This document shows, piece by piece, positions 3,018-61,561 of a stretch of DNA of 64,000 nucleotides (position 1 is its first letter; every line of letters begins with the position of its first letter). Made by a program: the position numbers and the translations under genes. The stretch covers positions 82,811-146,810 of the forward strand of contig CAZIEY010000001.1 of NCBI GenBank assembly GCA_964538855.1, written 5' to 3'. The stretch comes from an uncultured Candidatus Saccharibacteria bacterium (GTDB lineage: Bacteria; Patescibacteriota; Minisyncoccia; Phycocordibacterales; JAACPR01). The notes beneath the pieces are model-generated. The model was given only the letters and a program-made list of their open reading frames with translations. It did no database searches and was not told the DNA's origin.

Positions 3018-4670
3018 CTACAACAAAATACGTAACGCATTTAATATCACCGTCACATCAATCGCTTCTTGGATAAAGGCGCCGACGACAGGGTTGATGT
3101 AACCGAGCGCGGCGAACACCATTCCGATAGTAGAGAGTGCGATTCCACCATACACACTTTGGCGAGCGATGCTCATTGTGCGGCGGGATGTCTTCATAAT
3201 GTATTCCAAGCGATCAATGCCGGAACCGAGCACTGCGATATCGGCCGCTTCTATTGCTGCACCATTTTCGCTGCCAGAAAAAACGATGCCGACATTTGCG
3301 GTTGCCAAAGCCGGCGCATCATTCACACCGTCACCAATCATCGCGACGACTTCGCCGCGCTGTTGCGCCTCGCGAACCAGACGCATTTTATCTGCGGGTG
3401 TCTGTTCCGCGTAAATTTTCATACGAGTATCGTTGAACAAATTTGTCGCGTGCGCCAATGTGTCGCCAGTAATCAGAGCAGACGTTGCGCCCCTTTCCGC
3501 AAGCGTCGTAATAAAATCTGCAGATCCGTGTTTCATCACATCGGAAAAAGCAAAGTTCGCGATTGTTGCATCGCCTCGCATCAAATGCGTTCCATCAAAT
3601 TTATATTCCGCACCATCAACACGTCCGGAAATTCCCTTGCCGATTTCTTCGTGTACATCGGTGGCGACTGGAAACGCGACATTTCGCCGACGAGCTTCGG
3701 CCACAATTGTCCGCGCACGCGGATGCAACGAATGAATTTCGAGCGCGGCTGCAATTCGCAAATCTATATCTGAAATTTTTGACACAAGCGCCGGCTCACC
3801 GAGCGTCAGTGTCCCCGTCTTATCAAAGAAAAAAGTTGTCGCGCTGTCGATCGATTCCAACGCCGAAGGTTTGCGCACAATAATTCCAGCCTTGGCGGCA
3901 CGCGACATTCCAGACACGAACGCAACTGGTGCGGCGATAATCAACGGGCACGGTGTTGCAATGACGAGCACGGCGAGAACTCGTCCCAATTCCCCAGTGT
4001 AGACATACGCACACGTTGCGAGAGCCACCGACAATCCTGTGAAATACGCATTCGCTCGCGCCGATAATCGCACCATACGAGCCGGATGAGTTCGGGCTTT
4101 TTCAACCACTTCGACAATTTTGTGATATGTGGATGTGGTGAAGTCGCCGGTGACGCGCATTTCGAATGCCTCACCTTTGTTAATCACGCCCGATTTAATG
4201 GAAGTGTCAGCAACGACTTCGACCACATCGCTTTCGCCCGTCAAATTCGCTGTGTCGAGCAACGCCCCGCGCGGCGATACCACCACGCCGTCGAGCGGAA
4301 TGATTTCTTGATGCTTGACCAAAATAATTGAGCCGTCATGAATTGATTGTAGAGGTGTGTCGACGAACATGTCGCCTTGTCGCACGGCGCACGTTTTTGG
4401 AATTGTATGTGCCAATTGAGACAGCGACGACGAAGCTTTACGAGTCGCATATCGCTCTAACGCCTCGCCTCCCAAAAACATCACCGCGATCACTGCGCCC
4501 GCAATATATTCCCCCGTCACAAGCGACAACACCATCGCCGCTGCTGCGATATAATCCAAACTGTATTCACCGCGTCGAATGTGTTGAAACGAATCTATCG
4601 CAATGCGAATGAGTCCGAGGCAGATGATGGGGATGAGGAATATTTCCATACATAAAGTATACCAACACAT
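3018..4670 (-). CDS. P-type ATPase, heavy-metal (P1B-like) translocating, minimal architecture
   Basis: DKTGTLT phosphorylation motif, MIGDGVNDAPALA hinge motif, TPCPL (CPx-type) membrane motif; 550 aa, no N-terminal metal-binding domain. Confidence 0.8.
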   Translation of the reverse strand: MCWYTLCMEIFLIPIICLGLIRIAIDSFQHIRRGEYSLDYIAAAAMVLSLVTGEYIAGAVIAVMFLGGEALERYATRKASSSLSQLAHTIPKTCAVRQGDMFVDTPLQSIHDGSIILVKHQEIIPLDGVVVSPRGALLDTANLTGESDVVEVVADTSIKSGVINKGEAFEMRVTGDFTTSTYHKIVEVVEKARTHPARMVRLSARANAYFTGLSVALATCAYVYTGELGRVLAVLVIATPCPLIIAAPVAFVSGMSRAAKAGIIVRKPSALESIDSATTFFFDKTGTLTLGEPALVSKISDIDLRIAAALEIHSLHPRARTIVAEARRRNVAFPVATDVHEEIGKGISGRVDGAEYKFDGTHLMRGDATIANFAFSDVMKHGSADFITTLAERGATSALITGDTLAHATNLFNDTRMKIYAEQTPADKMRLVREAQQRGEVVAMIGDGVNDAPALATANVGIVFSGSENGAAIEAADIAVLGSGIDRLEYIMKTSRRTMSIARQSVYGGIALSTIGMVFAALGYINPVVGAFIQEAIDVTVILNALRILL

Positions 4671-11324: not shown

Positions 11325-11813
11325 TTAACATTTTTGTGGAGCTTTGAAATAAACCGTGAGTATCTCAACAACCTCCTCAAGCGACCTCTCGGTACTTACA
11401 GGTATCGCTCCTTTCTCAAGCATACTCTCCTCAAAATTCTTGTAAGTATCCAGCAGATACTTCTGAGCAGTTTCGTCCTTGCCGAAGTCGTTGTCTTTTC
11501 TTTCCATAATTCTTTTGAGAAAAGTTTCTGGAGCACACTGGAGCAATATAATTTTATCGAATAGGTGCAAAAAATCAGCCTGATTCTCTGCATGACCAAA
11601 GATGATAGTACCTTTGCCTTCATCAAGCATTTTTGCCAATCGCTCTTTATCACATACCCACATATGAGAATTAATAAATTCCTGATTGAGCACAGCTTCG
11701 TAATCTATTTTCTGACCATCTAATCTATTTATCCAACTACATTCTAAAGCTTCGAGGATTTTCTCGGAATTAGATAAGTTACATTCCAACAAAAAACTCT
11801 TGCCTATCTTCAA
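11325..11813 (-). CDS. hypothetical protein, degenerate P-loop kinase-like
   Basis: 162 aa; MKIGKSFLL resembles a decayed Walker A; 35-nt 3' overlap with upstream Nudix gene. Confidence 0.3.
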   Translation of the reverse strand: MKIGKSFLLECNLSNSEKILEALECSWINRLDGQKIDYEAVLNQEFINSHMWVCDKERLAKMLDEGKGTIIFGHAENQADFLHLFDKIILLQCAPETFLKRIMERKDNDFGKDETAQKYLLDTYKNFEESMLEKGAIPVSTERSLEEVVEILTVYFKAPQKC

Positions 11814-12222
11814 ACCATTTCGCTAGTACCAGCTTCAACTGTACAGGCAAAAGTTCAACAGTTGATAGATCGGATATTTTAATCTTTTCAAAACTCAGAA
11901 AAGATTCTCGGCTCTTGAATACGACATCAGCAGCGACTTCGGTTACAAATATGTGATTGATTTCGTGTTGAATAGCACCATCTTTGAAATCAAATTGATG
12001 TTCACACACACCGATGTGAACCGGTGTTGAATGTGGAAATCCACCCAGTTCTTCGATAAATTCCCTCTCGAGCGTTTGCGTCAAAGATTCTCCGCTCTCG
12101 ACATGTCCACCAGGCAGAAAGTAGAGATTATTACGCTTACAAATCAACACTGCATCACCTTGAATAATCAAGGCTCGGGCCAAGACGTGAATTGAAGAGT
12201 TTGAGGGGTGGTATAATTTCAT
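11779..12222 (-). CDS. Nudix hydrolase
   Basis: Nudix box GGHVESGESLTQTLEREFIEELGG. Confidence 0.8.
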   Translation of the reverse strand: MKLYHPSNSSIHVLARALIIQGDAVLICKRNNLYFLPGGHVESGESLTQTLEREFIEELGGFPHSTPVHIGVCEHQFDFKDGAIQHEINHIFVTEVAADVVFKSRESFLSFEKIKISDLSTVELLPVQLKLVLAKWFEDRQEFFVGM

Positions 12223-12798
12223 TTAATCAGTATAACATTTCAATATCAAATCACTCATAACTAACTTATTCGCAAACCGATGTATATGCGGATCAAGATT
12301 TATAATATCAGTTTTCAGTATCTCCTCGTAATCAAACCACCGACATCCATTAAATTCCCCTGGATCATAGGTAACTTTTTTGGTCGAATCTGCCTTGAGC
12401 ACATACCAAAGACTTACATCTGTGTGCCCCGCCGTCTTTCCGACAGTTACCGTTTGTGTAATGAAAAATGGATTCACGCTCAGAAATTCCGCTGGCATAT
12501 GTAACTCCTCTTGAATTTCGCGCTCGACAGTTGCACGCGGGTCCTCGTCTTTTTCGACATGACCCCCAGTAGGAAGCCATCTCTCTGCTTTGATATGATC
12601 GACGAGCAATATCTTACGTCTCGCGACATCAACAAGTACAAAATACGAAACGAGATGTTTTGGTGGCGTCGCTGGTTTCTCGATTCGAAATATTTCTACT
12701 CCACTATCTATCCAAGCAAGCGCATCGAAAATATGCTCAGCCTCGATATTATCGAATGGTCGTATCGATTGAATAAGTTGTTTAATGTGATTTCTCAT
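12223..12798 (-). CDS. Nudix hydrolase
   Basis: Nudix box TGGHVEKDEDPRATVEREIQEEL. Confidence 0.8.
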   Translation of the reverse strand: MRNHIKQLIQSIRPFDNIEAEHIFDALAWIDSGVEIFRIEKPATPPKHLVSYFVLVDVARRKILLVDHIKAERWLPTGGHVEKDEDPRATVEREIQEELHMPAEFLSVNPFFITQTVTVGKTAGHTDVSLWYVLKADSTKKVTYDPGEFNGCRWFDYEEILKTDIINLDPHIHRFANKLVMSDLILKCYTD

Positions 12799-12799
12799 T

Positions 12800-13222
12800 T
12801 TATATTACCCGGAATAAATCTTTATTCTTATGCGATTCAAGAAACCACTCTTTTATCGTATGCGGAACGAGGTTCAAATCCGCCACCTCTGATATATCTT
12901 TCCACATCGGCTCGTATTGATTCGATTCGTTTCTTTTTTGTATTTCATTCCCATTTCCCAATTGTGGCTCGCCAGATATATATGAGCAAAGATAAAAGTA
13001 GCTCTCTGAAGTCTCGTCAGTAATTTTATACAGATATTTTTCAACTTTCACTTTGATAGAAGTTTCTTCCATCGCTTCTCTAGCGACAGCTTCTTCGATA
13101 GTTTCACCTTCCTCTTTTCCTCCACCAGGAAATACGAAATACGTGTTGCCGTTCTTTTTTCTCCACAAGAGTAGGACTCTTTCTTTGTCGACGACTATGG
13201 CGACTGCGCGGGTGCGTTTCAT
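12800..13222 (-). CDS. Nudix hydrolase
   Basis: Nudix box PGGGKEEGETIEEAVAREAMEETSI. Confidence 0.8.
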   Translation of the reverse strand: MKRTRAVAIVVDKERVLLLWRKKNGNTYFVFPGGGKEEGETIEEAVAREAMEETSIKVKVEKYLYKITDETSESYFYLCSYISGEPQLGNGNEIQKRNESNQYEPMWKDISEVADLNLVPHTIKEWFLESHKNKDLFRVI

Positions 13223-13258
13223 AGTGTGATTATAACTCAGAAAACAGTTTCATCGAAA

Positions 13259-13903
13259 CTACTTCACAATCGACTGTATACGTTTAATCGCCTTCGGTTG
13301 ATTCATTCGTCCATGACCAACTGGATAGTAGGTTGGATAAATATGATACGTGTGACCATCAATTACCATATCTTCTTTCTGACTGCCACTATATTTACTG
13401 ACTGAAACTTGTTGACCAAGTAAAATAGAGCTGACTTGATTGCCAAACGTAATAATGTGTTGAGGCTTGATCAATGCAATTTCCCTTTTCATTAACTCGA
13501 CATATTTTCGAAAGACATCATCTTTCAAAGGACGAGCGTCGAGCTGAGTACATTTTGCTAAATTTGTTACGTAAACTCCTTTCTTTTGTAACTCAGTATA
13601 TATGTCTTCGCACACATTCAATGACCATTCGTGTGGTTGAAGCGTTTGCGTAATTTTAAAATATTTTTCAGGAAGAAAACGTAAATCTCTCAAAAGGCTC
13701 CAAATGTTTTTGGTGCCGAGCCAAGGAGCTCGCATTCCTTTCCACGATTTCTGTGCAGATACATTTTTTGCAGTCGGATTCATAAAAATAAGCATTACTT
13801 TAGGCTTATCTATACAACCAGCTCCATACACAGAACAAAGAGAGCTGTCTCCATACAGATTATGTAGCACGTCTATTTCATGGTGTATTTCTTTTACTTG
13901 CAT
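13259..13903 (-). CDS. uracil-DNA glycosylase superfamily protein (MUG/SMUG-like motif)
   Basis: VMLIFMNPTAKN resembles the G[IM]NPG motif A of MUG/SMUG-type UDGs; C-terminal YPVGHG in the position of motif B; assignment tentative. Confidence 0.45.
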   Translation of the reverse strand: MQVKEIHHEIDVLHNLYGDSSLCSVYGAGCIDKPKVMLIFMNPTAKNVSAQKSWKGMRAPWLGTKNIWSLLRDLRFLPEKYFKITQTLQPHEWSLNVCEDIYTELQKKGVYVTNLAKCTQLDARPLKDDVFRKYVELMKREIALIKPQHIITFGNQVSSILLGQQVSVSKYSGSQKEDMVIDGHTYHIYPTYYPVGHGRMNQPKAIKRIQSIVK

Positions 13904-18016: not shown

Positions 18017-18195
18017 TGCTGCCCGACAGGGACTCGGTCACAGGTTTTCTTCGCTTCGCTACGAAACCCGCGACCCCGCCTCGCGACCTATTTCTCACTA
18101 CGTTCGAAACAGGTAACCCGCTCCGGCTTTCGAGTCCTGACGTAACGCTCTCGCGTTACTTCGGACATCACTCCGCTCGCTTCGCTTGCTCCGTG
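18017..18195 (-). repeat. tRNA-trailing GC-rich element ending in 20-nt direct copy of tRNA-Gln 3' end
   Basis: 18017-18036 is identical to 18194-18213 (tgctgcccgacagggactcg); contains GGGGTCGCG and GTGACCGAG blocks shared with the Leu and Trp elements; strong internal hairpins (GTAACGC/GCGTTAC). Confidence 0.6.
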
Positions 18196-18266
18196 CTGCC
18201 CGACAGGGACTCGAACCCCAATACCCGCCTCCAAAGGGCGGTGTCCTACCATTAGACGATCGGGCA
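18196..18266 (-). tRNA. tRNA-Gln (anticodon TTG)
   Basis: Manual fold: acceptor TGCCCGA/TCGGGCA, D-loop AATGGTA, anticodon loop CTTTGGA, T-loop TTCGAGT; CCA not encoded. Confidence 0.8.
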
Positions 18267-18418: not shown

Positions 18419-18919
18419 TTATCTCATAGATAATTTGTGTTGCAAATGATTTAAATACTCTATTAAACCACCGGCTTCGAATTTCAAAAGTTTTGCGCAT
18501 TTGTGCACGTTGGGACTCAAGACACACCCTAACTTATGACCATGTCGCAAAAAGCGCACTGTCGAATAGAAATCTCCATCACTAGTCACCACAATCGCTT
18601 TATCGTAATTACGTAATCTAGACATAATGTATACAATCATATCTCCGTCACAATTTCCTTTTATATTTCTATGTATATCAATCACGACGGGTTTGAAAAC
18701 AAGAATATAGCCACATCGCCGTAACAAATTATAAAACTCTGTATTCGTTTCAATAAAACCAATAAAGACAAATACTTTATCGATTTTGTACTTATCCTTG
18801 AGATAAACAAAGAACTTTTTCCAGTCTAATTTCCAACCCATAGCGACAATCCCCATCGTCAAATTCTGCGCGTCTATAAAAGCAAAATTGCGTCGCTGAT
18901 TTTTCATCATGCCACGCAT
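18419..18919 (-). CDS. NYN-domain (LabA-like) predicted RNA nuclease
   Basis: NYN hallmarks: FIDAQNL (first Asp), NIKGNCDGDM, VVTSDGDF. Confidence 0.7.
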   Translation of the reverse strand: MRGMMKNQRRNFAFIDAQNLTMGIVAMGWKLDWKKFFVYLKDKYKIDKVFVFIGFIETNTEFYNLLRRCGYILVFKPVVIDIHRNIKGNCDGDMIVYIMSRLRNYDKAIVVTSDGDFYSTVRFLRHGHKLGCVLSPNVHKCAKLLKFEAGGLIEYLNHLQHKLSMR

Positions 18920-31671: not shown

Positions 31672-31755
31672 GCCGGAGTGGCGGAATTGGTAGACGCGCA
31701 CGACTCAAAATCGTGTATTCGAGAGGATGTGAGGGTTCGAGTCCCTCCCCCGGCA
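31672..31755 (+). tRNA. tRNA-Leu (anticodon CAA)
   Basis: GCCGGAGTGGCGGAATTGGTAGACGC… long variable arm, anticodon loop CTCAAAA, T-loop TTCGAGT; CCA not encoded. Confidence 0.85.
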
Positions 31756-31767
31756 CATTATTAAAAA

Positions 31768-31797
31768 ATCTCCTATTCTTTAGGGGATTTTTTAATA
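31768..31797 (+). terminator. intrinsic terminator after tRNA-Leu
   Basis: ATCTCCTA…TAGGGGAT hairpin followed by TTTTTT. Confidence 0.6.
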
Positions 31798-31969
31798 ACT
31801 GTGTAAGGGATCTGGGACGAGAAAGGCGGAGGCGTGGGTCCCCTGTGTCGAGAGTATCGAGACCTGGGGCGCCGAGCCGGGGTCGCGAACACTTAGATTT
31901 TTATGAGTGAGTCCCTCGAGCGAAATAAAAAGCTTAGTGATTCGTGACCGAGTCCCTCCCCCGGCACCA
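31798..31969 (+). repeat. tRNA-trailing GC-rich element ending in 19-21-nt direct copy of tRNA-Leu 3' end (with CCA)
   Basis: Blocks GCCGAGCCGGGGTCGCGAACACTT (31871-31894) and TTAGTGATTCGTGACCGAG (31934-31952) are shared with the Trp element; 31949-31969 cgagtccctcccccggcacca copies the tRNA-Leu T-arm/acceptor. Confidence 0.65.
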
Positions 31970-37073: not shown

Positions 37074-37104
37074 GTGATTATACTAGCTTACATTATATAT
37101 CACT

Positions 37105-37333
37105 TGCGGGTCCACCACTCTCGGTCACGAATCACTAAGTAAAATGCTTCGCCTCGACCATATTTCGATAGATGATGACGGCTCGCATTTTACAAAGTGT
37201 TCGCGACCCCGGCTCGGCCATCCCAGATTTCGCTGCGCTCCATACTGGGACCCTTGGCCTGCGCCTTTCGAATCCTGGTGGACCTCGCAACAAAAATCGC
37301 CGCCTCCTCTCGGAGACGGCTCATTTTGTTGTG
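37105..37333 (-). repeat. tRNA-trailing GC-rich element ending in 13-14-nt direct copy of tRNA-Trp 3' end; contains inverted copy of tRNA T-arm
   Basis: Blocks GCCGAGCCGGGGTCGCGAACACTT (rc of 37195-37218) and ACTTAGTGATTCGTGACCGAG (rc of 37119-37140) are shared with the Leu element; 37105-37117 tgcgggtccacca duplicates 37332-37344; 37267-37284 ttcgaatcctggtggacc is the inverted complement of the tRNA 3' region. Confidence 0.65.
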
Positions 37334-37405
37334 CGGGTCCACCAGGATTCGAACCTGGAACCTCAGTTTTGGAGACCGATGTTTTACCATTGAAACTATA
37401 GACCC
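37334..37405 (-). tRNA. tRNA-Trp (anticodon CCA)
   Basis: GGGTCTATAGTTTCAATGGTAAAACATCGGTCTCCAAAACTGAGG…TTCGAATCCTGGTGGACCCG; CCA not encoded. Confidence 0.85.
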
Positions 37406-42126: not shown

Positions 42127-42516
42127 GTGAAAGATTTTGACAGTTGGAATCTAAAGAAACAAGAAATAGATAGAAAAGCATATTTTTTCCACCCAAAAGT
42201 TGGAGAAATTTGGTGGTGCATGATAGGAATGAATATTGGATCAGAAATATATGGTAAAGGAAAAAATTACCTCCGACCAGGGCTTGTGATTGAATTGGGT
42301 CAACACGACAATTTTATCGGTATCCCCTTAACATCAAAAAAGAAGAAATCACGACGTTCATGTATCATACGTTCAGAAGATGGAATATTACATACTGCTC
42401 TTATCACTCAACTGCGTTGTTTCGACAAGAGGAGATTACTAGAGAAAAAATCCGCTTTATCAAATGATGAATTTACACTTATTAAAAATTGTCTGAGGAG
42501 CGTTCTTAAAATATAA
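42127..42516 (+). CDS. PemK/MazF-like endoribonuclease toxin family protein (solitary)
   Basis: GEIWWCMIG…RPGLVIELGQ…GIPLTSKKK pattern matches the MazF/PemK fold (GxIWxVDF…RP.LVL…P.TS); GTG start 7 nt after a TATAAT box; no antitoxin-like small ORF adjacent. Confidence 0.4.
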   Translation: MKDFDSWNLKKQEIDRKAYFFHPKVGEIWWCMIGMNIGSEIYGKGKNYLRPGLVIELGQHDNFIGIPLTSKKKKSRRSCIIRSEDGILHTALITQLRCFDKRRLLEKKSALSNDEFTLIKNCLRSVLKI

Positions 42517-42832: not shown

Positions 42833-45178
42833 TTACCTCACCTCCCACCCACTCTTCTTCATCTCGCCGGCAATGCCATCCATAATCGCGTTCACTTCCG
42901 CATCCGTCAGAGTTTTTTCGAATGATTGGAATACGAGACGGAATGCATATGAAGTGCGACCGTCTTTTTTGAATACGTCGAACAAGCGATTTTTAATCAT
43001 CAAAGGGCCGGCGTTTTTCGTAATGAGCGCAAGCACGTCCGATTCCGCCACCGCATCAGGCACCCACACCGCAACGTCTCGAATCATAAAAGGATACGCT
43101 GAGATCGGCGCGTATGTAACCGTCTCCACCGGCACAAGCGGTTCGTATGAAATATCGCCAATCGACGCCACGACTTTTTCCAAATCAATTTCCACGAAAA
43201 GCGGTGTATCTGAAATTTCCGTAGTAACTAATTTCACCCCCAGAACTTCTGAGAGCTTCGATAAGGTATCCTTAATGGTCTCTTCTGGTCTTGGTTTTTT
43301 GAAACCATTGCGATTCGCCACACAAATACCAAGCATCACGCGTTCTATACCCTTCTTTGGAAAGACTTTACCAATTTCAAACACACGCACCTGATCAAGC
43401 ATCAAGAAATCAATATTGTAGAGATTTTGAGGGAGTGTTGTACCAATACCATGAGCAAGCGTCGTTCGCAAAAACGCCTTGTCTTCTGAAATAGGATTCT
43501 CAGGAGCAATCACACCAGTCGGCACGAATGTGTACGTGTAGACTTCGGAAAAGCCAAGGCCGTTGAGCGTCGCTTTTATTTTCTGCGACACCGCATACAT
43601 TTTGTTTTGTGCAGGGGCAAAATCCATCTGCGAGATCGCAGTTTCTTTGACGTGTTCGTATCCGAGGACGCGACCAACTTCTTCGATAACATCCGCGCCA
43701 GTTTTAATATCCAATCGTTCAACAGGCACCGTCAATGCAAATCGATTTTCATTCGGAGCAAAAAATCGACCGTACCCTACAATATTTTGAAAGCGCGCAC
43801 TGTCAGCAATTTTTTCTTCGACAACGCCAGCGTCATTCAATTCAGTCGCATGCAACACTTTACCATCGCCAGTATAAAATCCAACATGATCCACGCCATG
43901 GACCACATCAGTGCCTTTGGCAAACTCGACGCTCTTGTAATCAATTTTATGTTTCAAATCGCCAGTGTTTGCAAAAATCACATCGCCTGGTTGCATGTCA
44001 GCTTGCGAAATTTTTTCTGCGTACACAAATTGGTCGACAGACATGCGAGGCACCGACAAACCAGCGAGCGCTGATACGTACGCAGTGAAACTCGAACAAT
44101 CAAATGCATTCGGTGCGTCAAAAAATACACTTGAAGCCCACTTGTATGGAACTCCTACCAATTTTTGTCCTTCAGAAATAACCACCTCGCGAGGATTCAC
44201 AATTACATATTCAAAACCGAGACGGTCGAATGCGCCAGCAATTTCTTTTTCAGAATATGCAGTACCGAGCAACGCGTTGACTTCACGCACCGACACACCT
44301 GTGCGATATGGTCGCCATGTTTTTGGATAATGTTCGGCCTTGAGCGACACCGCAGTCACATCGGTCGCCGCATATTTCAAAATCAATTCAGTCGCCATAT
44401 CCATCGCGAGATCCGCAATCGCAGGCGTCACTTCGTTTTCGAAACGCTTTGATGAGTCGGTCATCACGCCGATTTTGCGCGACGTTTTTCGCACATATGT
44501 CGGATTGAAATTGGCAGACTCCAAAATGATGCGCTTTGTCGCACCGTCGACTTCTGGAATTTTTCCGCCCTTGATGCCGGCAATTGCGAGAGGTGTGTCA
44601 TTGTCATAAATTACCACCGCATCCATATTTAATTTCACCTGCTTGTTATCAAGCGTCGTGATTTCTTGTTCGTCTGTAGCGCGACGTACCACAATATTCC
44701 CCGTGATTTTATCCGCATCAAACGCGTGCATCGGTTGCCCCACCGCAAACATCACAATATTTGTGATATCGACAATGTTGTTAATTGAGCGTTGACCGAG
44801 AGCTTCGATTTTCGCTTTCAGTTCAGGAGCGCTTTCAGCCACGCGGACATTCGTAATTTCACGAGCCACATATCGGCGGCACAAATCGGTTTCGACGGAT
44901 AAAGTAAAGCTTGGCGCAAAAGTACCAGCATGCAGTGGAATCTCGCGCTTTTTTAATTTCAAGCCCGTCATCATTGCAATTTCGCGTGCAATTCCGTCGT
45001 GCGACAAACAATCGTGTGCGCGGTTCGGCAACACATCAACATCAATAATCCAATCATCGCCGTGCGCGGTCACTTCTTCAATTTCAAAAGCCTTGAGCGA
45101 AATCATAGACGCCAAATCCTCGGCCGGTGGCAACGGCGCATCGAAATATTCTTGAAGCCATTTGTATGAGACGAGCAT
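42833..45178 (-). CDS. pheT: phenylalanine--tRNA ligase beta subunit with inserted NlpC/P60-like domain
   Basis: B3/B4, B5 (VSVREVNALLGTAYSEKEIAGAFDRLGF), catalytic-like core and C-terminal FDX-ACB domains; ~150 aa insertion (residues ~325-478) carrying NlpC/P60 motifs (GVPYKW…FDCSSF…PGDVIF…HVGFYTGDGKVLHA). Confidence 0.9.
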   Translation of the reverse strand: MLVSYKWLQEYFDAPLPPAEDLASMISLKAFEIEEVTAHGDDWIIDVDVLPNRAHDCLSHDGIAREIAMMTGLKLKKREIPLHAGTFAPSFTLSVETDLCRRYVAREITNVRVAESAPELKAKIEALGQRSINNIVDITNIVMFAVGQPMHAFDADKITGNIVVRRATDEQEITTLDNKQVKLNMDAVVIYDNDTPLAIAGIKGGKIPEVDGATKRIILESANFNPTYVRKTSRKIGVMTDSSKRFENEVTPAIADLAMDMATELILKYAATDVTAVSLKAEHYPKTWRPYRTGVSVREVNALLGTAYSEKEIAGAFDRLGFEYVIVNPREVVISEGQKLVGVPYKWASSVFFDAPNAFDCSSFTAYVSALAGLSVPRMSVDQFVYAEKISQADMQPGDVIFANTGDLKHKIDYKSVEFAKGTDVVHGVDHVGFYTGDGKVLHATELNDAGVVEEKIADSARFQNIVGYGRFFAPNENRFALTVPVERLDIKTGADVIEEVGRVLGYEHVKETAISQMDFAPAQNKMYAVSQKIKATLNGLGFSEVYTYTFVPTGVIAPENPISEDKAFLRTTLAHGIGTTLPQNLYNIDFLMLDQVRVFEIGKVFPKKGIERVMLGICVANRNGFKKPRPEETIKDTLSKLSEVLGVKLVTTEISDTPLFVEIDLEKVVASIGDISYEPLVPVETVTYAPISAYPFMIRDVAVWVPDAVAESDVLALITKNAGPLMIKNRLFDVFKKDGRTSYAFRLVFQSFEKTLTDAEVNAIMDGIAGEMKKSGWEVR

Positions 45179-60970: not shown

Positions 60971-61561
60971 TTAATCTCGCTTAATCAAGTTTTTGATTTC
61001 TGGCAAAAAGGTTAGTTTCGGAGCAAGTCTTTTAATCAAGCTCGAACATTTTTCCTTCCCTCTCGGACTTAATACTATTTGTAACTTATTCTTTTCCTGT
61101 AGAAATTTGATGAGGCACCCAAAATCCCCATCACTCGACACCACAACCATTTTTTCGAAATTATTTTCATAATAATCTCTAACCGCCTTCAAAACTAATT
61201 CCGCATCACAATTCCCCTTTATGTTTCCACGTCCGTCGGGTAAAGTTGGTTTAAATATTAACGTATACCCTTGTTCTTGAAACCGCTTATACCTTTCCTC
61301 ATTACCAGGAACATAACCAGTAAATATGTAGGCAGCTTTAATACGAAATTTATCCCTTAAATAAGTTCTAAATTTGACATAATCAGTAGTGAAACCTTCC
61401 GCCTCGCATCCTTTATAGAAATTTGTATTGTCTATATATGCAACATTTTTTAGATCTTTATTTTCCACCTCGTCTATTATACGGACCCGACCTAAAAGCT
61501 TTATAAAGAAACAATCAAGAAATTCTAAAACTGTCTGTATAGCGATTTCCGCACCCTTCAT
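60971..61561 (-). CDS. NYN-domain (LabA-like) predicted RNA nuclease, second paralog
   Basis: AYIDNTNFY, NIKGNCDAELVL, VVVSSDGDF NYN motifs; paralog of 18419..18919. Confidence 0.7.
   Translation of the reverse strand: MKGAEIAIQTVLEFLDCFFIKLLGRVRIIDEVENKDLKNVAYIDNTNFYKGCEAEGFTTDYVKFRTYLRDKFRIKAAYIFTGYVPGNEERYKRFQEQGYTLIFKPTLPDGRGNIKGNCDAELVLKAVRDYYENNFEKMVVVSSDGDFGCLIKFLQEKNKLQIVLSPRGKEKCSSLIKRLAPKLTFLPEIKNLIKRD

Follow-up and report, generated by a model that had tools for sequence, protein, structure and literature searches.

Integrative elements that target tRNA genes (phage and island att sites, CIME-type elements) occupy the 3' end of the tRNA, produce a direct repeat from the T-loop to the 3' end, leave the tRNA intact, may stand in tandem copies, and can be lost precisely. 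The same can be said of the element described here, which follows tRNA-Trp in a 64,000-nt stretch (hereafter the window) of a contig from an uncultured Candidatus Saccharibacteria bacterium. The flanking repeat of the tRNA end is present, but the element measures 130 to 250 nt, has no cargo and no carried or adjacent integrase or recombinase gene, places one core at at least 16 different tRNAs, each time with matching arms, and possesses in addition an inverted target copy and a three-way-junction core that covaries. Like MITEs and REP-REPIN sequences, it is small, non-coding, multicopy, hairpin-forming, intergenic, often terminator-acting, and, in our best reading, non-autonomous, with a copy content that varies among relatives. 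Unlike them, it takes its arms from the local tRNA rather than from conserved ends, shows neither conserved terminal inverted repeats nor a target duplication of fixed length, stands strictly after tRNA genes in a single orientation, and has no parent IS or RAYT that we could find. Its direct repeats disfavor membership in the IS200/IS605 or REP/RAYT groups, since IS200/IS605 elements, to our knowledge, leave none.

Structural parallels are found among RNAs. In tRNA-like RNAs (the tmRNA domain, YrlA, mascRNA, viral TLS), as in the modeled element, the 5' and 3' ends form a stacked acceptor/T-stem helix that ends at the discriminator, and processing by tRNA enzymes appears plausible; here, by contrast, there is no Rfam match, a two-hairpin junction takes the place of the T-loop, and the mimic copies the adjacent tRNA, is multicopy, and is dispensable. 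Junction riboswitches with a switching P1 also combine a conserved three-way junction with a closing helix in which one strand can pair elsewhere, but in the element this second partner lies upstream, in a finished tRNA, and not in a downstream expression platform. R2/SIDE retrotransposons reside in or beside a host RNA gene with which they are co-transcribed, and base-pair through their 5' sequences with the host RNA upstream; the Neurospora Mauriceville retroplasmid carries a tRNA-like 3' tag and integrates at tRNA genes. These are eukaryotic or organellar and depend on a reverse transcriptase (RT), whereas here no RT was found in the window or near elements and the inserted block takes in the hairpin that precedes the arm. 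Retrons share with the element a closing helix and a long variable hairpin, but the RT gene is missing and, unlike a retron, the element has many copies per genome. A literature search retrieved no published description of the family, which is apparently undescribed so far; PMC8040213 does not mention such elements, and PMC13011429 deals with anticodon-loop group I introns and reports group II introns as absent from Patescibacteria.

The tRNA-Trp (CCA) gene spans 37333 to 37405 on the minus strand (ARAGORN; Rfam tRNA, 59.2 bits), and its segment X, from the T-loop to the 3' end, is the source of the sequence copied in the element. ARAGORN, Rfam, and a repeat search confirmed the trailing element proposed in the preliminary description; its parts follow in the order terminator-like hairpin, inverted copy, conserved core, and 13-nt direct copy. 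The trailer with terminator-like hairpin t1 occupies 37291 to 37332 (minus strand; terminator scan, inverted repeat); its stem-loop, GCCGTCTCC GAGA GGAGGCGGC at 37299 to 37320, is followed by GATTTTTGTT in the terminator scan, and the palindrome is lengthened by an A-tract and a T-tract on its flanks. This hairpin between tRNA-Trp and the inverted copy had been overlooked. The 5' arm, X' (TTGCGAGGTCCACCAGGATTCGAA; 37267 to 37290, minus strand; repeat search, folds), is an inverted copy of tRNA positions 54 to 73 plus "CA," in which 18 nt are exact and the remainder matches around one extra A. The 18-nt inverted copy reported earlier is exact (37267 to 37284 against 37336 to 37353, 100% complementary in the repeat search), but its tRNA arm had been placed one position off, at 37337 to 37354, and 51 rather than about 52 nt separate the arms. 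The core consists of the junction (AAG), short helix P2, and hairpin A at 37211 to 37266 (minus strand; fold), P2 being GNC/GN'C with the internal loop GGAG/CGAG, and of hairpin B (P3) at 37120 to 37210 (minus strand; pattern match, anchor-indexed covariation, alignment A1), of which the base, GGGGTCGCGA...YGTGACCGAG, and a bulged A are conserved, while the upper stem is variable and covaries. A distal direct copy of the tRNA-Trp 3' end (AGTGGTGGACCCGCAA; 37104 to 37119, minus strand; repeat search, fold) concludes the element, as had been claimed; the direct repeat TGCGGGTCCACCA is exact over 13 nt (37105 to 37117 and 37332 to 37344; repeat search).

In the predicted fold, the distal copy pairs with X' and thereby closes the three-way junction; that the inverted copy closes a helix with the distal direct copy had also escaped the preliminary description. 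When tRNA-Trp and its trailer are folded together (z = -10.7), the predicted minimum-energy fold sequesters the tRNA 3' half, in agreement with the earlier proposal that the trailer could capture the tRNA 3' end; the distal copy is in this fold the partner of the tRNA 5' strand. A tandem tRNA paralogue was rejected as the origin of the arm, because the 5' arm reverse-complements the 3' strand: where a U of the tRNA 5' strand stands opposite G, the arm shows C, and its sequence runs ACTCGAA rather than TTCGAGT. The promoter scan of the Trp locus gave no promoter-like site between the terminator-like hairpin and the 5' arm. A spurious 85-aa ORF had been called over the Trp element, and a homologue search with the neighboring 153-aa gene recovered only the query protein.

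Further copies follow two other tRNA genes of the window, and the proposal that the Trp, Leu, and Gln trailing sequences are one element family holds. The element after tRNA-Leu (CAA; 31672 to 31756, plus strand) lies at 31757 to 31969 on the plus strand (model R1 match, 31808 to 31964, 76.3 bits); a weak X' and the core follow hairpin t1, and a direct repeat of 19 nt, with ...GGCACCA as its last letters, reproduces the tRNA end. The one after tRNA-Gln (TTG; 18195 to 18266, minus strand) lies at 18017 to 18167 on the minus strand (R1 match, 18021 to 18144, 77.8 bits; RNAduplex); it begins with the acceptor-strand complement (18161 to 18167), an inserted hairpin P0 (18142 to 18159), and then the T-stem complement, its core carries a short hairpin B, its direct copy measures 20 nt, and the terminator scan found no terminator-like site ahead of it. 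The weaker inverted copy noticed before in the Gln element (CAGGACTCGAA) is present. Trp and Leu elements are identical over GCCGAGCCGGGGTCGCGAACACTT (24 nt, as first stated) and CTTAGTGATTCGTGACCGAG, which comprises 20 nt and not 19. The motif pair GGGGTCGCG...GTGACCGAG occurs three times in the window and in none of 100 shuffles, and is not there by chance. The tRNA-Thr of the window has no element.

In public contigs, the same architecture stands behind about 90 tRNA genes with at least 16 amino-acid specificities. Of 134 pattern matches, 87 are located 65 to 330 nt downstream of a tRNA on the same strand (at least 16 specificities), and model R1 detected 122 copies in 684 kb; all copies within 450 nt downstream of a detected tRNA are on the strand of that tRNA, and most remaining R1 matches adjoin a contig end or are further copies of a tandem array. 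All labeled genome matches are Patescibacteria, and the element is kept from Saccharibacteria to Paceibacteria as a non-coding, GC-rich structured appendage of about 130 to 250 nt in the orientation of the tRNA, with a core of about 100 to 150 nt that is conserved and covaries across phyla with 28 to 58% GC. The first genome-wide pattern (18 bases) was too loose and returned 120 loci, mostly chance matches in high-GC genomes, 9 of which were real, all CPR. Phage origin was rejected as well: a scan of viral contigs gave 87 stretches, and those checked were chance matches in high-GC contigs, none of them with a tRNA context. At the Rfam 15 gathering score, the tRNAs alone pass and the element matches no family; relaxed searches (E ≤ 10 at the Trp locus, E ≤ 1 at seven other loci) returned weak, inconsistent matches to unrelated hairpin families.

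Covariation supports the core structure. RNAalifold predicted 23 pairs in alignment A1, 12 of them with compensatory changes; paired cells amounted to 93.6%, compared with 74.6% in shuffles and 31 to 42% when the partners were slid, and double-change cells numbered 226 (67 in shuffles). The middle base pair of P2 covaries in A1 (CG 28, GC 10, AU 7, UA 4), as do the anchor-indexed pairs of hairpin B (e.g., GC 38, AT 27, CG 17), the bulged A of which is conserved in 74 of 83 cases. Conserved positions keep G-T pairs (59 G-T versus 21 G-C), in 73 of 73 elements the sense strand folds more stably than its antisense counterpart (mean, -12.2 kcal/mol), and G-U pairs number 219 in sense and 64 in antisense. 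The three-way junction is thus supported by covariation and forms on the tRNA-sense strand only. This conserved core, the most constrained part of the element, was a further feature missed by the preliminary description. On inspection, a hammerhead reading of the junction was rejected (no CUGANGA, no Rfam match), as was a group I intron (no U-G splice-site pair, no Rfam match). Tandem G-A motifs and GNRA loops abound in the elements, and hairpin loops with the core GCGAAGC recur among them; GCGAAGC forms a DNA mini-hairpin of exceptional stability, and such loops also typify single-stranded DNA when it folds.

The closing helix (median, 18 bp; RNAduplex) joins the 3' strands of acceptor and T-stem to their complement and, being built from two tRNA-derived arms, imitates the coaxial acceptor/T-arm helix of the neighboring tRNA. 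Hairpin P0 sits between the acceptor and T-stem complements, at the 7/49 junction, and many copies have an extra hairpin where the D and anticodon arms would branch. The elements thus have what marks a tRNA-like structure, namely, a helix equivalent to acceptor plus T-stem and a single-stranded discriminator/CCA end. The distal copy has CCA in 13 of 14 cases in which the tRNA gene encodes it; where the gene lacks CCA, it appears in 3 of 33 copies, not significantly more than the roughly 2 expected given the shared C74, so that copying from a mature tRNA (RNA-derived CCA) was rejected.

Each block is assembled from an optional hairpin, which is often terminator-like, the 5' arm, the conserved core, and usually the direct repeat, and its arms change with the tRNA behind which it stands. 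In reverse complement, the 5' arm reads as the host tRNA from T-loop position 54 through the 3' end, while the direct repeat reproduces the tRNA from about position 60 and usually ends at the tRNA 3' end (median across the family, 19 nt; range, about 6 to 64 nt). The hairpin base ...GTGACCGAG abuts target-derived DNA at tRNA position 60/61 and is invariant in the motif-collected copies, although conservation of the collecting motifs arises partly by construction, because the family was gathered with a fixed motif pair. In 41 of 71 elements, the 5' arm forms a more stable duplex with the 3' end of its own tRNA than with the distal copy; the reverse holds in 7, and in 23 the two are equal. The 5' arm also tracks the T-loop variants of its host (TTCGAAT, TTCGATT, TTCAAGT), whereas the distal side is constant (CCGAGT), and the 12 nt of the Trp arm that face the T-arm lack a partner in the distal copy and yet are retained across relatives.

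Since the 153-aa gene next to the Trp element gave no homologues, relatives were reached via ParB. After tRNA-Leu, the window and L331 have the block, and L329, L332, and L333 lack it; the flank GTTGACTTCAT... directly follows tRNA-Leu in L329 and follows the distal repeat in L331. After tRNA-Trp, four genomes have the block and L329 lacks it. At orthologous tRNAs of genomes with 93 to 95% ParB identity, the block may be there or missing: its insertion point coincides exactly with the tRNA 3' end, it takes in the hairpin upstream of the 5' arm, and it is gained or lost between close relatives. The Trp copy, however, is common to the window and a genome with only 71% ParB identity, and its retention since that split suggests selection rather than pure parasitism. 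Hairpin t1 of the Trp locus is orthologous in L331, L332, and L333. The preliminary description had named lack of conservation at orthologous loci as a finding that would speak against it; the inverted copy is recognizable at the Trp locus of three relatives, and this objection therefore fails. Orthologous copies are mosaic, hairpin-B sequences of 46 nt are identical beside Val, Arg, and Ala tRNAs, and modules are exchanged between copies; de novo arm formation, unlike such exchange, was not observed. Tandem arrays, remnants, and decayed distal copies also occur.

In 41 of 72 elements (57%), Trp among them, the 5' arm comes after a terminator-like hairpin with a T-run, so that many transcripts would end ahead of the inverted copy; about 40% of the copies have no terminator ahead of the element, and the G+C-rich stem-loop with T-run of an intrinsic terminator, found at Trp, is therefore not universal in the family. 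A role for the trailer in tRNA 3' processing or termination, as first suggested, is supported in part, the complement being systematic and tRNA specific and more often pairing better with the tRNA's own end, but the element is dispensable and the terminator often lies upstream; as only some tRNAs have the block and it is missing from the same tRNAs at 93 to 95% ParB identity, the view of the element as simply a tRNA trailer with a processing role is not supported as stated. The window has no transposase, integrase, or RT gene, and no HUH (TnpA/RAYT), Xer, or other recombinase gene was found in its 64 kb or enriched near elements; it does encode DprA. Clustering of 377 neighbor ORFs revealed no enriched protein family, the clusters being syntenic housekeeping genes only (ParB, MiaA, RbfA, IF-2, RluA, and the CCA-adding enzyme).

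We prefer to read the element, with about an even chance of being right, as a mobile but non-autonomous repeat with an RNA structure, directed at tRNA 3' ends and mimicking the acceptor/T-arm in its closing helix. As we infer its function and mobility, the element would be transcribed as a 3' extension of the tRNA, terminator-preceded copies depending on read-through, and its tRNA-like helix would make it a substrate of RNase P, RNase Z, and the CCA-adding enzyme with the tRNA unharmed. The 5' arm would have two alternative partners, the 3' half of its tRNA and the distal copy. Recombination in the duplicated tRNA 3' end would account for spread and loss; in formal terms, a circular unit "tRNA end-hairpin-5' arm-core" would cross over with the tRNA gene, comparable to tRNA-targeting integrative elements. 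An enzyme acting in trans may recognize the invariant base of hairpin B, or host recombination following natural transformation may serve instead. Several observations run against this reading: no recombinase gene was found in the window or enriched near elements, a crossover in the repeated tRNA end alone leaves unexplained how the core acquires the arms of a new tRNA, the terminator-like hairpin stands before the 5' arm in 41 of 72 copies, the GCGAAGC loops are also typical of single-stranded DNA, and the better match of the 5' arm to the tRNA's own end fits a cis function at least equally well.

Such a cis function, a sharpened form of the earlier proposal, in which the host would use the element as an RNA device to gate the maturation, the termination, or the quality control of the adjacent tRNA, we regard as rather unlikely. 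In read-through RNA, the 5' arm would zip from the hairpin into the tRNA 3' half, and the precursor would be inactivated or marked; pairing of the 5' arm with the distal copy, stabilized by the junction, perhaps with a bound ligand or protein, would free the tRNA. The arm preference (41 elements versus 7, with 23 equal), its adherence to host T-loop variants opposite a constant CCGAGT, the retained 12 unpartnered nucleotides of the Trp arm, the sequestered 3' half in the minimum-energy fold of tRNA-Trp, the conserved and covarying, aptamer-like junction, and the position always directly downstream on the same strand would all be expected of it. Yet the block is missing at the same tRNA in relatives of 93 to 95% ParB identity and at tRNA-Thr of the window, arrays, remnants, and decayed distal copies exist, a terminator before the arm in 57% of the copies would prevent its transcription, and a folded, modified tRNA is hard to invade.

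Mobility at the DNA level, which seems improbable, would dispense with a functional RNA: single-stranded DNA folds would be recognized in trans by an HUH (IS200/IS605- or RAYT-type) transposase or an Xer-type recombinase, and the 5' arm and the tRNA-end copy would rebuild a duplex target site, as CTX phage does at dif. Folding is strand specific, the invariant hairpin base adjoins target-derived DNA, GCGAAGC loops recur, the Trp locus leaves no room for a promoter, tandem arrays occur, and the order of parts may be that left when a folded single-stranded circle crosses over with the tRNA gene; against this stand the missing HUH, Xer, or other recombinase gene in the window or enriched near elements, the kept G-T pairs, tandem G-A motifs, and GNRA loops that are more typical of RNA, the direct repeats that IS200/IS605 elements lack, and arms made per tRNA, unlike transposon ends. 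Very little probability falls to a retroelement-like RNA, a transcript with a tRNA-like tag that an RT in trans would copy into cDNA recombining with the tRNA gene. A tRNA-like closing helix ending at the discriminator, co-orientation beside a host RNA gene, a 5' arm that complements the upstream host gene as R2 5' ends do, and three distal copies with CCA where the gene has none speak for it, but this CCA excess is not significant (3 of 33 versus about 2 expected), the 5' arm complements the genomic trailer and not a CCA end, the inserted block includes the pre-arm hairpin that a processed RNA would lack, no RT is found in the window or near elements, and group II introns are reported to be absent from Patescibacteria (PMC13011429). 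That the repeats are scars of ordinary integrated islands (att sites left after deletion) or chance repeats, as the direct repeat of the tRNA 3' end, a classic att signature, might suggest, is effectively refuted: shuffles gave no motif-pair match, the same architecture recurs at about 90 tRNAs, the core is conserved and covaries across phyla, and there are no island genes.

Whichever reading applies, the elements generate spurious ORF calls, and the duplicated tRNA 3' ends could be mistaken for prophage att sites. We tentatively raise a broader idea, to which we assign a low probability, that they form a new class of tRNA-coupled RNA with arms as functional guides rather than by-products of insertion. 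As a switch acting on the maturation or the decay of individual tRNAs, the conserved junction may control whether the tRNA loses its 3' half to the 5' arm; as a self-targeting mobile RNA, the arms may guide it to the region from the T-loop to the 3' end of tRNA genes and be read by a new CPR enzyme. Patescibacteria have very small genomes, and yet many of their tRNA genes bear a structured appendage of 130 to 250 nt. If it is mobile, as we prefer, it would be unusual in regenerating its target and carrying an inverted and a direct copy of whichever tRNA hosts it, with no linked enzyme, and would point to a hitherto unrecognized recombination system directed at the universally conserved T-loop. 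A functional RNA, in turn, would mean that each such tRNA has its own specific acceptor-arm mimic or antisense produced beside it, and this would bear on how tRNAs are processed and controlled in reduced organisms.

Downstream of tRNA-Trp(CCA) (37333-37405, minus strand), the locus opens, in the tRNA sense, with a G+C-rich stem-loop and T-run (37299-37320, then GATTTTTGTT). It continues through the segment TTGCGAGGTCCACCAGGATTCGAA (37290-37267), a 56-nt region with one hairpin, and a 91-nt hairpin (37210-37120) with ends GGGGTCGCG and GTGACCGAG, and it closes with AGTGGTGGACCCGCAA (37119-37104). The repeat search found a perfect 18-nt inverted repeat (37267-37284 with 37336-37353, gap of 51 nt) and a perfect 13-nt direct repeat (37105-37117 and 37332-37344). 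The inverted and direct copies of the tRNA 3' end reported here by the preliminary description are thus confirmed, with coordinates correct to within one base, and the repeat search and family scans greatly generalize them; the blocks it had found common to the Trp and tRNA-Leu elements (24 nt and, in place of the 19 nt given there, 20 nt) and the weaker inverted version at the Gln element are also real. As a pair, the two core motifs are found at three places in the window and in none of 100 shuffles. An 85-amino-acid ORF (37144-37401, plus strand), antisense to the Trp element and tRNA and represented by a 73-amino-acid gene in the Logan annotation (5250-5471 of L001, a contig carrying the window genes), is almost certainly a spurious call due to the GC-rich element.

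A copy begins with an optional hairpin, t1, which is terminator-like in 41 of 72 copies. The 5' arm corresponds to the tRNA, from T54 to the discriminator, in reverse complement, and it often extends into sequence complementary to the trailer; by sequence the arm is a true inverted copy, and its derivation from the 5' strand of the tRNA was ruled out. The junction AAG follows the arm, and then helix P2, which has 3 bp (GNC/GN'C) and a GGAG/CGAG internal loop and bears hairpin A (missing from some copies), and hairpin B, which has the base GGGGTCGCGA...YGTGACCGAG, a bulged A, and an upper stem that varies between copies. The distal copy, the last part, repeats the tRNA from about position 60/61 to the 3' end and includes CCA in 13 of the 14 cases where the tRNA gene encodes it. 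The arms are tRNA-derived, and the closing helix between them has a median of 18 bp and -22.8 kcal/mol (RNAduplex). Many copies, among them the Gln element of the window, carry an inserted hairpin (P0) within the 5' arm, exactly between the complements of the acceptor strand and the T stem, which gives a topology of acceptor stem, side arm, and T stem in which a two-hairpin junction replaces the T-loop. Throughout the family, trailers and the loops of elements repeatedly contain GCGAAGC mini-hairpins, and in one locus (L314, ~300-530) a ~77-nt unit (..TTTTAATGAACGAAGTGAATATAAAAACTTCGCGTCCTGAGGCTAATGCCGAAGGGCAGGTTAG..) stands three times in tandem between tRNA-Gln and its element.

Structure prediction by RNAalifold on an alignment of 50 elements (A1) yielded 23 pairs in four helices, with double compensatory changes at 12 pairs. 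Standard pairs occupy 93.6% of the cells of this structure, compared with 74.6% in column shuffles (0 of 500 reached the observed value) and 31 to 42% when partners were slid by 1 to 3 columns; the cells changed on both sides number 226, 67, and 27 to 47, respectively. By construction, the two motifs through which the family was collected do not vary, and the covariation evidence comes from positions outside both. Counts indexed from fixed motifs concur: one hairpin-B pair is GC in 38, AT in 27, and CG in 17 copies, and the bulged A is found in 74 of 83. Conservation of the fold is limited to the sense strand. This strand is stabler than the antisense strand in all 73 of 73 elements (mean difference, 12.2 kcal/mol), G-U pairs number 219 on the sense versus 64 on the antisense strand, and the pair closing the base of hairpin B is G-T in 59 versus G-C in 21.

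When 185,579 species genomes were scanned with a loose motif, most matches arose by chance in high-GC genomes; the nine real ones belong to Saccharibacteria, Paceibacterota/Parcubacteria, unnamed Patescibacteria, or an "uncultured bacterium" that bears no label but has the same architecture. Those matches of a viral scan that were checked were likewise due to chance, and a tighter scan of metagenome contigs gave at least 120 stretches. Among the matches listed, 87 of 134 lie 65 to 330 nt downstream of a same-strand tRNA (Leu, Val, Arg, Asp, Ser, Ile, Asn, Thr, Trp, Ala, Gln, Lys, Phe, Pro, Tyr, or Gly), and nearly all of those without such a tRNA lie either at the end of a contig or within a high-GC contig. 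The genome of the window resembles those of Paceibacteria: its GC content is 42%, and the closest homologues of its ParB are labelled Paceibacteria or Parcubacteria. Within the data searched, the elements form a non-coding, tRNA-linked family confined to CPR bacteria (Patescibacteria). No Rfam 15 family matches the element, it fits none of the known families by the membership tests run, and no description of these tRNA-trailing elements was found in the literature searched. For four copies on other contigs (L217, 522-681; L211, 1166-1326; L255, 2087-2204; L294, 1243-1347), neither a tRNA nor any other Rfam RNA was detected upstream; the first three are preceded by a common sequence (..AGTTCCGACAACGTCC..GCGCA), which could represent the degenerate 3' part of a tRNA or else an RNA gene that lacks annotation.

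The elements undergo gain and loss and exchange modules with one another. We compared the window with four related genomes found through ParB homologues (identities: L329, 95%; L331, 94%; L332, 93%; L333, 71%). At tRNA-Leu(CAA), the element is present in the window and L331 and absent from L332, L333, and L329, which implies at least one gain with L333 as the outgroup. The tRNA-Leu downstream flank (AGA GTTGACTTCATTTTCAAATTAGTCC...) stands directly after the tRNA in L329 and after the distal repeat in L331; the inserted block therefore comprises a hairpin, the 5' arm, the core, and a 19-nt tRNA-end repeat. At tRNA-Trp, the element is present in the window, L331, L332, and L333, and this copy is old, since its t1 hairpin is recognizably orthologous in the four; in L329 it is absent, having been lost unless the region was rearranged. 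Searched with the element model (R1), the window yields exactly three copies, L332 and L333 each yield the Trp copy alone, and L329 yields none. The L333 Trp copy has the short hairpin B of the window's Gln element, in the L331 Leu copy hairpin A is of the Gln type and hairpin B of the Leu type, the t1 hairpins of the two Leu copies are unrelated despite 94% ParB identity, and identical 46-nt hairpin-B sequences adjoin Val, Arg, and Ala tRNAs. Tandem arrays (loci L043, L320, L269, L005, and L018), truncated copies, and remnants are also seen, and three loci (L228, L219, and L261) have a single core between 44- to 64-nt repeats that take in the trailer.

The empty site after tRNA-Trp in L329 (7785-7830) holds a short, t1-like hairpin of A-tract, GAGCGAAGCGA, and T-tract. 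At the empty tRNA-Leu sites of L329 (9767-9822) and L333 (9848-9852), the next gene or promoter-like sequence lies at most 5 to 55 nt downstream with no terminator, so that tRNA read-through into neighbouring genes may be common in these genomes. Another locus (L116, minus-strand reading) has a second, degenerate copy ~200 to 520 nt downstream of its element (4109-4185). After this copy come duplicated 3' fragments of tRNA in antisense (TGGACGGTACAGGACTCGAACC...), which adjoin an antisense tRNA gene; partial tRNA duplication therefore occurs outside the element too.

No enzyme is linked to the elements. They have no coding capacity, and the genes of the window are housekeeping only (including ParB, TopA, DprA, SerRS, GyrB, PheRS, MiaA, FemAB, and MurE-like genes, ribosomal proteins, and pentose-phosphate enzymes), with no transposase, integrase, or reverse transcriptase. 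Among 377 ORFs within 2.5 kb of elements at loci other than the window, no linked enzyme was found, and the largest families (4 to 6 members) are syntenic housekeeping genes. The window encodes two NYN-domain (PIN-like nuclease) proteins (18419-18919 and 60971-61561, both minus strand), one of them directly upstream of tRNA-Gln and its element, and a PemK-family toxin (42127-42516, plus strand; L001 10205-10594) with no obvious antitoxin Pfam match adjoining. The PheRS beta subunit (42833-45178, minus strand), like that of L333, has an NLPC_P60 peptidase match between B3_4 and B5 in precomputed Pfam data, an unusual fusion. L333 also has a three-gene insert with an AEP-like primase (11761-13549) between a methyltransferase gene and topA; neither the window nor the other relatives have this insert, which is probably a small mobile island.

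The duplex of the 5' arm, calculated for 71 elements, is stabler with the element's own tRNA 3' end (plus trailer) in 41, stabler with the distal copy in 7, and equal in 23; this preference arises in part because the arm runs on into the trailer complement and in part from the interruption or decay common among distal copies. The T-arm segment of the tRNA-Trp arm is unpaired by the distal copy yet kept in relatives, and in a few cases an unusual host T-loop is matched by the arm but not by the distal side; one locus (L289) presents the reverse case, in which arm and distal copy have a common change that the tRNA lacks. Folded to its predicted energy minimum, the complete Trp transcript has the tRNA 3' half paired with the arm and the tRNA 5' strand with the distal copy. 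The earlier proposal that the trailer could sequester the tRNA 3' end, with possible consequences for processing, termination, or acceptor folding, finds partial support in these predicted pairings. In formal terms, block and proximal tRNA end together amount to a T-loop insertion at position 59/60.

Three other readings have to be set beside this evidence. Pairing between arm and tRNA is the context in which a cis-regulatory device would be considered, which we regard as unlikely. A DNA-hairpin transposon is distinctly improbable, and a retroelement is very improbable indeed. We favor instead a small repeat element that would be transcribed together with its tRNA; 43% of copies have no terminator ahead of the core, and the others would need read-through. 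Its tRNA-like closing helix would make it a substrate of tRNA-processing enzymes, and movement may proceed by recombination in the repeated tRNA end or in the universally conserved T-loop, carried out by an enzyme in trans or by the host after DNA uptake (DprA is present in the window). The element is best filed as an unusual variant among small site-specific repeat elements, one whose conserved RNA-type structure mimics the tRNA acceptor arm.
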